A stretch of 64,000 nucleotides of DNA, from the NCBI GenBank assembly GCA_041664925.1, contig JBAYJV010000002.1, positions 264,302 through 328,301 of the forward strand, in the 5' to 3' direction. The stretch comes from Minisyncoccota bacterium (GTDB lineage Bacteria > Patescibacteriota > Minisyncoccia > JBAYJV01). Of the stretch, positions 35,381 to 36,059 are shown piece after piece (positions within the stretch are counted from its first letter, which is position 1; every line of letters starts with the position of its first letter). The notes beneath the pieces were generated by a model. It was not told the DNA's origin. It searched no databases and worked only from the letters and a program-made list of their open reading frames with translations. Both the position numbers and the translations under genes were made by a program.

Positions 35381-35432
35381 TGTGTACACATTACCACGAA
35401 ATATTGACTTTCTATATTAAATATGCTATAAT
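35381..35432 (+). promoter_or_regulatory. consensus sigma70-type promoter with upstream perfect palindrome
   Basis: TTGACT (35405-35410), 16-nt spacer, TATAAT (35427-35432). A 10-bp perfect palindrome tgtgtacaca at 35381-35390 lies 14 nt upstream of the -35. Confidence 0.5.
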
Positions 35433-35488
35433 GGATAGTAGAAAAGAATTCGGTGTTTTCATGAATCGAATCCAAGAAAGGAGGATAA

Positions 35489-36013
35489 GTGATCGTCACT
35501 ACGAAAGATAAGAATGGCAATCGCCGTTTCAATGAAGCTGTGGGAGTTCGCGATTTCTACGATCTCGTGGTCATCGGCAAACTCCTTTTGCCACTTATGG
35601 CAGCGAAGGAGATTCGTGGATTCAAGATCAACGAAACGGGAATCGTCTTTACCTACTTTCTTACCTCCAGAACAACCGGAAAAGACGAGGCACTGACGAT
35701 CGAGATCGAGGGAAGCGCCGAGGAAATGGCAGACTTGGGACGAGCAGCCGTGGTCCAGGGTATGCACCCGCATGGTACGTGGAATCCGACCCAAGTTGAC
35801 GGCCAAGTTGTGGCTTGGTGCAACAAGGTATCTGGAACCCAGACGCCGGAAGAGAACATCAAGCTCGGGCTGATTCTCTTCTGTGGCTATAATAGCCGCG
35901 AAGAGATTGACGCGCTCACGAGACTCTCGATCACCGAGATCAATGCGGCTCACAGACTTGTTCAGTCGGAAGGCTGGGCAGTTATGCGAGTCGTAGAGTT
36001 CTGTGCCGCCTAG
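35489..36013 (+). CDS. hypothetical protein encoded by a GC-rich foreign cassette (174 aa, GTG start)
   Basis: aaaggagga SD then GTG. About 52% GC with GC3-rich codons, against ~33% in the surroundings. A consensus promoter lies upstream and a strong terminator downstream. Confidence 0.55.
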   Translation: MIVTTKDKNGNRRFNEAVGVRDFYDLVVIGKLLLPLMAAKEIRGFKINETGIVFTYFLTSRTTGKDEALTIEIEGSAEEMADLGRAAVVQGMHPHGTWNPTQVDGQVVAWCNKVSGTQTPEENIKLGLILFCGYNSREEIDALTRLSITEINAAHRLVQSEGWAVMRVVEFCAA

Positions 36014-36029
36014 CGTTGCGGCGCACAAG

Positions 36030-36059
36030 AACCCCATCAGCGTATGGGGTTCTTTTTTT
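36030..36059 (+). terminator. rho-independent terminator
   Basis: aaccccat-cagcgt-atggggtt plus a T-run of seven. Confidence 0.65.

Follow-up and report, generated by a model that had tools for sequence, protein, structure and literature searches.

In minimal mobile elements of Neisseria, the stretch between conserved flanking genes contains genes that are unrelated from strain to strain, and natural transformation with homologous recombination in the flanks leads to their exchange. Phage morons are independent units of promoter, gene and terminator, with a deviant content of guanine plus cytosine (GC), that are located between conserved prophage genes. In Patescibacteria, about one detectable transferred gene per genome has been reported, and 61.6% of the genes in acquired regions have no annotated function (PMC12455944). 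The stretch of DNA analyzed here (hereafter, the window) is a 64-kb segment of the chromosome of a Candidatus Paceibacterota bacterium, a member of the candidate phyla radiation (CPR), and contains a GC-rich block with a gene for a protein of 174 amino acids (aa). The explanation that best accounts for this block, and that can be considered moderately probable, is that it is a genuine gene for a soluble protein that fills an exchangeable cargo slot within a variable chromosomal zone, between a conserved gene for a 196-aa membrane protein and a gene for a LiaF-like protein. The strong promoter and the terminator of this slot are common to a relative, in which they frame a different orphan gene, and the cargo would be exchanged through recombination in the flanks.

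The sole homologue of the 174-aa protein, identified in a word-indexed search of 5.8 billion proteins, is P0002, encoded on a 631-bp contig (L001) from ENA assembly ERZ27245774. P0002 also consists of 174 aa and is 63% identical to the window protein; the two genes align over 525 nt without indels, with 69% nucleotide identity, and the 164 differences are distributed as 37/38/89 among the three codon positions (nonsynonymous divergence dN 0.24, synonymous divergence dS 1.9, dN/dS 0.12). The dS is saturated in the first two thirds of the open reading frame (ORF) and amounts to 0.8 in the 3' third. Given the intact frame, the lack of indels, the third-position excess and the low dN/dS, the block is, as judged by this pairwise comparison, protein-coding and subject to purifying selection. 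The homologous ORF is GC-rich as well (51.4%, with 58% GC at the third codon position, GC3), and L001 shares with the window the −10 element, located at the start of the contig, the whole leader (about 70% of the aligned columns are identical, with the L001 leader being the GC-richer one), the Shine-Dalgarno (SD) sequence, the hairpin around the stop codon, in which a G-U pair of the window is G-C in L001, and the beginning of the terminator. The 3' end of L001 is an artefact because the contig finishes in a Nextera transposase adapter (positions 613–631, CTGTCTCTTATACACATCT), with the terminator ending after AAGAACC.

A 192-aa ORF on the opposite strand overlaps the gene, and its frame is interrupted by stop codons in L001, so that the long antisense ORFs are indeed spurious, as assumed in a first-pass annotation of this DNA. 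Nevertheless, the gene call on L009, an ENA contig of the same locus, took this antisense ORF (P0125), and accordingly the true 174-aa protein is missing from the ENA source. This is an annotation hazard: protein databases may, in the same manner, conceal homologues of GC-rich genes from AT-rich genomes. A search with the antisense protein as the query for loci mis-called in this way retrieved no further homologue.

The composition and codon usage of the block are foreign to the host. In a profile of 400-nt segments with a mean GC of 35.5% (standard deviation, s.d., 3.7), the block peaks at 56% (35651–36050), and every other block in the 64 kb is at or below 45.5%. The ORF contains 52.8% GC, with 57/40/61% in the three codon positions, compared to 46.7/33.9/27.8% in host genes. 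Against a GC3 of 27.6±5% in the window, its own lies 6.6 s.d. above that of 71 other ORFs, its codon adaptation to the window usage is 0.474 against 0.691±0.021 (minimum 0.657), that is, about 10 s.d. lower, and no other gene of the window, translation genes included, has a GC3 above 0.38. Thus, the sliding GC profile and codon adaptation both bear out the foreign character proposed at first pass, including the GC-richness of the block itself, although the value of 33% GC given for the flanks has to be replaced with about 31–39%. Recent acquisition of the gene is plausible, if not proven, because there is no sign of the composition drifting toward that of the host and because the relatives L010 and L011, described below, lack the gene. 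The allele as such has to be old somewhere because its sole homologue is deeply diverged, with saturated dS, and is equally GC-rich, with the same −10 element, untranslated leader and terminator stub.

The composition shifts abruptly, within about 100 bp at each edge of the block, as could be expected of an assembly chimera or of contaminant DNA from a GC-richer organism. However, both junctions are identical in three assemblies produced by different pipelines, namely the NCBI/JGI contig from a metagenome-assembled genome, the Logan contig L002 and the ENA MEGAHIT contig L009 (165 kb). Moreover, L002 and L009 share a single-nucleotide polymorphism at position 36166 (A, compared to G in the window), the one difference of each from the window, which results in a Gly9 to Ser replacement in the 63-aa LiaF-like protein encoded by the next gene; at least two near-identical consensus genotypes, therefore, carry the GC-rich gene. 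The flanks adjoining the block are, furthermore, homologous to the slot of a relative. Given the agreement of the three assemblies at both junctions, a chimera is effectively ruled out, and this explanation is the least probable of those considered here.

The SD sequence is a second foreign trait of the gene, independent of composition. An SD of at least 5 nt at any plausible start is present in only 5 of the 68 long ORFs of the window, so that this signal is atypical of the host, and the one that precedes the 174-aa ORF is the strongest of all. Among the resident genes of L010, none has an SD, and both cassettes of that contig, encoding 201-aa and 73-aa ORFs, have strong ones. The SD, the GTG start and the terminator listed at first pass are all in place (Table 1). 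The TTGACT/TATAAT promoter is present as well and is one of 7 sites scoring at least 11/12 on both strands of the 64 kb, but its spacer, previously given as 16 nt, is 17 nt long and includes a TG extension. The perfect 10-bp palindrome reported upstream of the promoter exists as a sequence and fails as a feature. Given that the window contains 92 perfect 10-bp palindromes (1.4 per kb), the occurrence of one within the upstream region of about 100 bp is unremarkable, and this particular palindrome falls within a stretch of about 11–12 nt that is gapped in the alignment with L010. It was considered as a candidate operator and rejected on account of its chance frequency and absence from L010. In the leader, no hairpin was detected (folding z score about 0 in both copies) and there is no Rfam match; the stop-codon hairpin and the terminator, taken as a pair, fold with a z score of −4.2.

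Table 1. Features of the GC-rich block, its flanks and the corresponding unit of a relative (window positions unless a contig is named)
Position	Strand	Feature
35318..35355	+	AT-rich hairpin with a T-run, 3' of the gene for the 196-aa membrane protein; inverted repeat I5; apparent left edge of the resident slot
35381..35390	.	Perfect 10-bp palindrome TGTGTACACA; exact sequence found once in the window; probably incidental
35404..35432	+	Sigma-70-type promoter: TTGACT (35404–35409), 17-nt spacer, TG-extended TATAAT (35427–35432); 11/12 match
35433..35488	+	5' leader with SD AAAGGAGGA at 35477–35485
35489..36013	+	Protein-coding gene, GTG start, 174 aa; two-member orphan family
35459..36037	-	Spurious 192-aa antisense ORF; ENA gene call P0125 on L009 (10750–11328)
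36003..36024	+	7-bp hairpin with the TAG stop codon in the loop
36027..36060	+	Intrinsic terminator: perfect 11-bp stem, 6-nt loop (28-nt stem-loop), then T7; apparently resident slot sequence
36063..36333	+	Right anchor: promoter, leader and gene of a 63-aa LiaF-TM-like membrane protein
L010 7240–7961 (L011 5560–6280)		201-aa orphan unit: promoter TTGACT-17-TAAGAT, SD AAAAAGGAGGTG

The only informative relatives are L010 and L011, which represent one syntenic lineage from two JGI samples, with 37% GC. Their identity to the window is 93% for the ceramidase, 90% for the ABC ATPase, 81% for the 196-aa protein, 74% for the ABC permease and 64% for the LiaF-like protein. In line with the proposed acquisition, the 174-aa gene is missing from the same locus in L010/L011; instead, a 201-aa orphan is located directly upstream of the LiaF-like promoter. 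The two proteins are unrelated (hhalign probability 0.3%). The gene for the 201-aa protein contains 46% GC, compared to 37% for the contig, its GC3 is not elevated, and the protein has no match in Pfam, PHROG or the PDB.

The flanks of the two unrelated ORFs are homologous, as indicated by alignments tested against 500 dinucleotide shuffles. Window positions 35318–35434, which encompass the hairpin, the spacer and the −35 and −10 elements, align to L010 7192–7294 with a score of 44 (19.3±2.8 for the shuffles, none of the 500 reaching it). The terminator, at 36025–36058, aligns to L010 7926–7961 with a score of 31 (11.4±1.9, 0/500), and the match extends to the loop (ATCAGCGTAT vs GATCAGTGTATC) and to one additional, compensated base pair of the stem. 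The promoter and leader of the LiaF-like gene (TATAATAGAAATAAAGGTCGTTTTATT) are almost identical in L010 (74 vs 20.8±3.9, 0/500). As a control, alignment of the left region of the window with another intergenic region of L010 yields a shuffle-level score. Homology is lacking only over about 35450–36024, a segment of 575 bp (52.3% GC) that extends from the 3' part of the leader, with the SD, through the ORF to the hairpin at the stop codon. Because homologous signals frame the unrelated 201-aa ORF in L010, the promoter and the terminator look like resident sequence of the slot, or at least like a shared shell. Hence the first-pass description of the gene as a fully self-contained cassette is not supported: the hairpin with the promoter, on one side, and the terminator, on the other, match the slot flanks of L010.

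Other relatives (L003–L008 and L014–L016) carry different genes downstream of the gene for the 196-aa protein, a protein that has about 1,000 homologues in Patescibacteria. In a test for an empty site through this neighbor, most of the relatives (at most 78% identity) lacked downstream synteny, and only L010/L011 were informative. Because the downstream genes differ in most relatives, the locus qualifies as a variable zone. The right-anchor protein, of 63 aa, matches the Pfam families LiaF-TM and LiaI-LiaF-like_TM1. Its homologue in L010 (8033–8236) is uncalled in the JGI annotation and is found by tblastn, at 64% identity. A scan of viral contigs with the promoter and leader of the LiaF-like gene yielded nothing.

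Taken together, these observations are compatible with the following course of events. The segment most likely to have been exchanged is the approximately 575 bp at about 35450–36024. The probable route would be uptake of DNA, from a donor that probably had about 50–55% GC and used SD sequences, followed by recombination at the homologous flanks that contain the promoter and the terminator. Transcription of the gene would then yield a monocistronic mRNA, and translation would depend on its SD, a signal that most core genes of this genome lack; the 174-aa gene may also be highly expressed, as proposed at first pass. If true, the locus would be a clean example of a streamlined CPR bacterium sampling foreign genes by replacement of cargo in a pre-wired promoter-terminator slot, rather than through transposons or phages, a mode of acquisition that fits the reliance of CPR on DNA uptake.

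Several points weigh against this interpretation. Only a single informative relative lineage (L010/L011) and a single homologue that comes without flanks (L001) bear on the direction and timing of the swap. The presence in L001 of the same −10 element, leader and terminator stub is also compatible with a mobile unit that carries its signals along. Furthermore, dS is saturated and yet both copies have 51–53% GC, which is awkward for a simple recent import if the host of L001 is AT-rich. The pattern seen in L001 fits three options, namely that a GC-richer relative with the same slot is the native host of the allele, that the signals travel with the ORF, or that the high GC content is selectively maintained. 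No target duplication, terminal repeats, integrase or transposase was found, which leaves the flank homology as the sole basis of the proposed mechanism. Finally, any functional statement is weak because structure prediction failed: the AlphaFold2 model built from the two sequences reaches a pLDDT of 38 for the whole protein and of 57 for the C-terminal 80 aa, which are predicted to be all-helical.

The second of the three options corresponds to a self-contained mobile cassette, in which the promoter, leader, ORF and terminator move as a unit, as in a phage moron, and the 201-aa unit of L010 is a sister cassette in the same shell. The conservation of the −10 element, leader, stop hairpin and terminator start between L001 and the window, despite the saturated dS, speaks for such a cassette, as does the very similar promoter (TTGACTTT..ATATGCTATAAT) of a 73-aa cassette elsewhere in L010 (9205–9560, minus strand). 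In addition, the homology on the left starts at the hairpin, and the genes upstream of the hairpin differ between the window and L010. However, the terminator homology continues unbroken into the clearly resident promoter and gene of the LiaF-like protein, and the same promoter form, TTGACT/TGnTATAAT, is present at an ordinary host gene, at 49407. The candidate insertion scars, a terminal inverted repeat (35357–35371/36054–68) and a direct repeat (35343–63/36122–42), are at the chance level (p about 0.07 and 0.09, respectively). The nearest tRNA gene is 9 kb away, Pfam annotation marks no recombinase in the 20-kb neighborhood (about 10 kb on either side), no PHROG family matches any of 10 neighboring proteins, so that a prophage setting is not supported, and searches of viral, plasmid, genome and metagenome collections retrieved no copy. 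On balance, a cassette that moves together with its signals is an unlikely, even if not far-fetched, alternative to the exchange of cargo within a resident slot.

The 73-aa cassette of L010 is an observation in its own right. This third GC-rich mini-cassette was missed in the JGI annotation and consists of a TTGACT-17-TGCTATAAT promoter, the SD AAAGGAGGAGG, a putative 73-aa ORF (9254–9475, minus strand; 58.6% GC, GC3 77%) and a strong terminator. It is located between the genes for UMPH-1 and an ABC transporter, an interval that is only 55 nt long in the window, and its product has no match among PHROG or PDB sequences. In the groundwater relative represented by L003 and L004, a unit 3' of the gene for the 196-aa homologue (L003 2790–3215, L004 3345–3770) includes a TTGACT-17-TATAGT promoter, the SD GGAGGA, a GTG start, a 97-aa orphan ORF and a terminator; this unit shows no GC anomaly, and its protein is unrelated to the 174-aa protein.

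Alternatively, the gene might be an old resident that was lost or replaced in L010, with selection for translation, or for the stability or structure of the mRNA, maintaining the high GC content. In favor of this scenario, both copies have 51–53% GC, with a GC3 of 58–61%, and the same leader despite the saturated synonymous divergence. The transcript of the window gene also folds unusually well (z −6.4 with the terminators and −4.4 for the ORF alone), and in the 3' third, where dS is only 0.8, the hairpins at 35841–35888, 35945–35994 and 36003–36024 keep their pairing through eight substitutions. The excess folding, however, is not shared by L001, in which the ORF folds no better than its shuffles (z −0.9). 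When the single-sequence structures are used as the reference, the outcome is mixed: in one direction, 7 pairs are kept and 8 are broken, and in the other, 9 are kept and 3 are broken. The leader of L001 is GC-richer than that of the window, a hint that the host may be GC-richer, too. Two further observations do not fit an old resident, namely that the closest relative found lacks the gene and that the GC3 of the gene stands alone within the window. Long residence is therefore rather improbable, more so than the mobile cassette, and RNA-level constraint in the 3' third of the ORF is unproven. In the two long hairpins within this part of the ORF, all six substitutions relative to L001 preserve pairing, and one of these is a double compensatory change.

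In AT-rich genomes, islands of high GC often correspond to RNA genes, and the strong folding of the transcript, along with its own promoter and terminator, could suggest a structured non-coding or dual-function RNA with an incidental ORF. This is very improbable in view of the dominance of third-position substitutions, the dN/dS of 0.12 and the frame that remains intact in both copies; in addition, the folding excess is not conserved in L001, and an Rfam search with the block detects no match, either at the gathering threshold or at E values up to 10.

The 174-aa protein has a molecular mass of 19.2 kDa and an isoelectric point of 5.4, and inspection by eye reveals neither a transmembrane segment nor a signal peptide. 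The N-terminal 60 residues are variable between the two family members, and conservation is strong in the motif GSAEEM..DLG..AV.QGMHPHGTW and in the C-terminal 58 residues; histidine and cysteine residues present in both sequences are H93, H95, C111, C132, H155 and C172. Searches of Pfam, PHROGs, NCBIfam, PADLOC and PDB sequences with the whole protein or its halves produced no match, in agreement with the failure to recognize a family at first pass. The weak matches to DUF6123, phrog_19418 and YqbN were rejected, all being non-significant. When 1.84 billion cluster representatives were scanned in full with a HMMER profile, only the query and two repeat proteins, which are artefacts of summed repeats, were retrieved. 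No further homologue is detected in scans of genome, viral and metagenome contigs, tblastn searches against phages (50,697 records) and plasmids produce no match, and degenerate DNA patterns derived from the C-terminal region and the leader identify no further copy. The PADLOC defence models yield no family at E values up to 10 for either family member. With the isolated C-terminus, there is no Pfam match at E values up to 10 and nothing relevant among PDB sequences, and a Foldseek comparison of the AlphaFold2 model with the PDB finds nothing with an E value below 2. Thus, as far as these sequence, profile and fold searches reach, the 174-aa protein constitutes a new, extremely rare family with two known members.

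By eye, residues 124–157 resemble a helix-turn-helix pattern; no profile or fold search supports this resemblance, and it is to be taken as a lead only. Given the size, solubility and conserved helical C-terminus of the protein and the variable-slot context, which are the only grounds available, a cytoplasmic accessory protein that binds rather than catalyzes could be envisaged, with a regulatory role or one in phage-host conflict mediated by the conserved C-terminal third; this is a guess with a low probability at the most. Nothing so far points to an unusual mechanism.

The locus resembles a minimal mobile element in that the anchors are conserved on both sides (the region of the 196-aa gene with the promoter, and the terminator with the LiaF-like gene) and enclose unrelated ORFs in two related genomes, the cargo is compositionally deviant, and no mobility genes, repeats or target duplications were found. 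Unlike in Neisseria, the homology involves short non-coding signals (about 115 bp and about 35 bp) rather than whole flanking genes, two alleles are seen, the host belongs to the CPR, and transformation with recombination is inferred. As in a phage moron, a single ORF of deviant composition, with no assigned function, is preceded by a sigma-70-type promoter and followed by a factor-independent terminator, but the locus lies outside a prophage, and the promoter and the terminator appear to belong to the locus and not to the insert.

There is also a likeness to integron cassettes, with unrelated single ORFs swapped at one site 3' of a fixed promoter and a conserved hairpin after each. The differences are that the perfect 28-nt stem-loop with a T-run is a canonical terminator rather than an imperfect attC of 57–141 bp, that no GTTRRRY core is visible, and that there is one ORF per slot and no array; no integrase domain is found in the annotation of the 20-kb neighborhood, the rest of the window not having been scanned for integrases. 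The compositional anomaly, the absence from a close relative and the lack of an assignable function are all features of the islets and ORFans acquired by Patescibacteria (PMC12455944), and the kind of event is accordingly ordinary, given the published rate of about one detectable transferred gene per genome and the lack of a function for most genes in acquired regions. The differences from typical islets of this kind are the GC-rich cargo in an AT-rich host, the SD brought into a mostly SD-less genome and a donor that is untraceable, with only two family members among 5.8 billion proteins. Altogether, this is a new, rare protein family in a familiar genetic situation, and the slot architecture and the association of SD sequences with orphans merit further attention.

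Strong SD sequences are also found at a number of mostly small ORFs of the window: 419–676, 1547–1813 (minus strand), 1950–2174 and 2311–2583, as well as 6924–7205 (minus strand), 9221–9475, 10068–10208, 15748–16077 and 19913–20359. None of the ten SD-led small ORFs that were tested contains a Pfam domain. Each of the ORFs at 419–2583 has a terminator hairpin, a promoter is also recognizable for the ones at 1950 and 2311, and the SD at 1950 (AAAGGAGGATAGGTG) is one base off that of the 174-aa gene (AAAGGAGGATAAGTG). The SD-led small ORFs may represent a distinct class of accessory genes. A broader and doubtful generalization is that Paceibacterota possess fixed expression slots, with a TTGACT-17-TGnTATAAT promoter and a conserved terminator, in which unrelated foreign ORFs that bring their own SD are swapped by recombination without a recombinase. 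In genomes whose core genes initiate translation without SD, such ORFs would make up a separate, SD-led and independently transcribed accessory class, with the 174-aa ORF, the two L010 cassettes and the cluster at 419–2583 as its members. Of the leads that emerge here, the association of SD use with independently transcribed orphan genes in this genome is the one most readily reused.

The neighbors of the block are chromosomal genes, encoding a ceramidase, a SemiSWEET protein, a DNA alkylation repair protein and an ABC transporter. The gene at 36415–37053, downstream of the right anchor, encodes a 212-aa protein that shows no similarity to any Pfam or PHROG family and has no relative in the collection of genome contigs; it consists of an N-terminal membrane anchor and a cysteine-rich C-terminal region (CTDDTDCVLFGKTGECNCGCYH...CFCQAPTSCKCFENQCEG).

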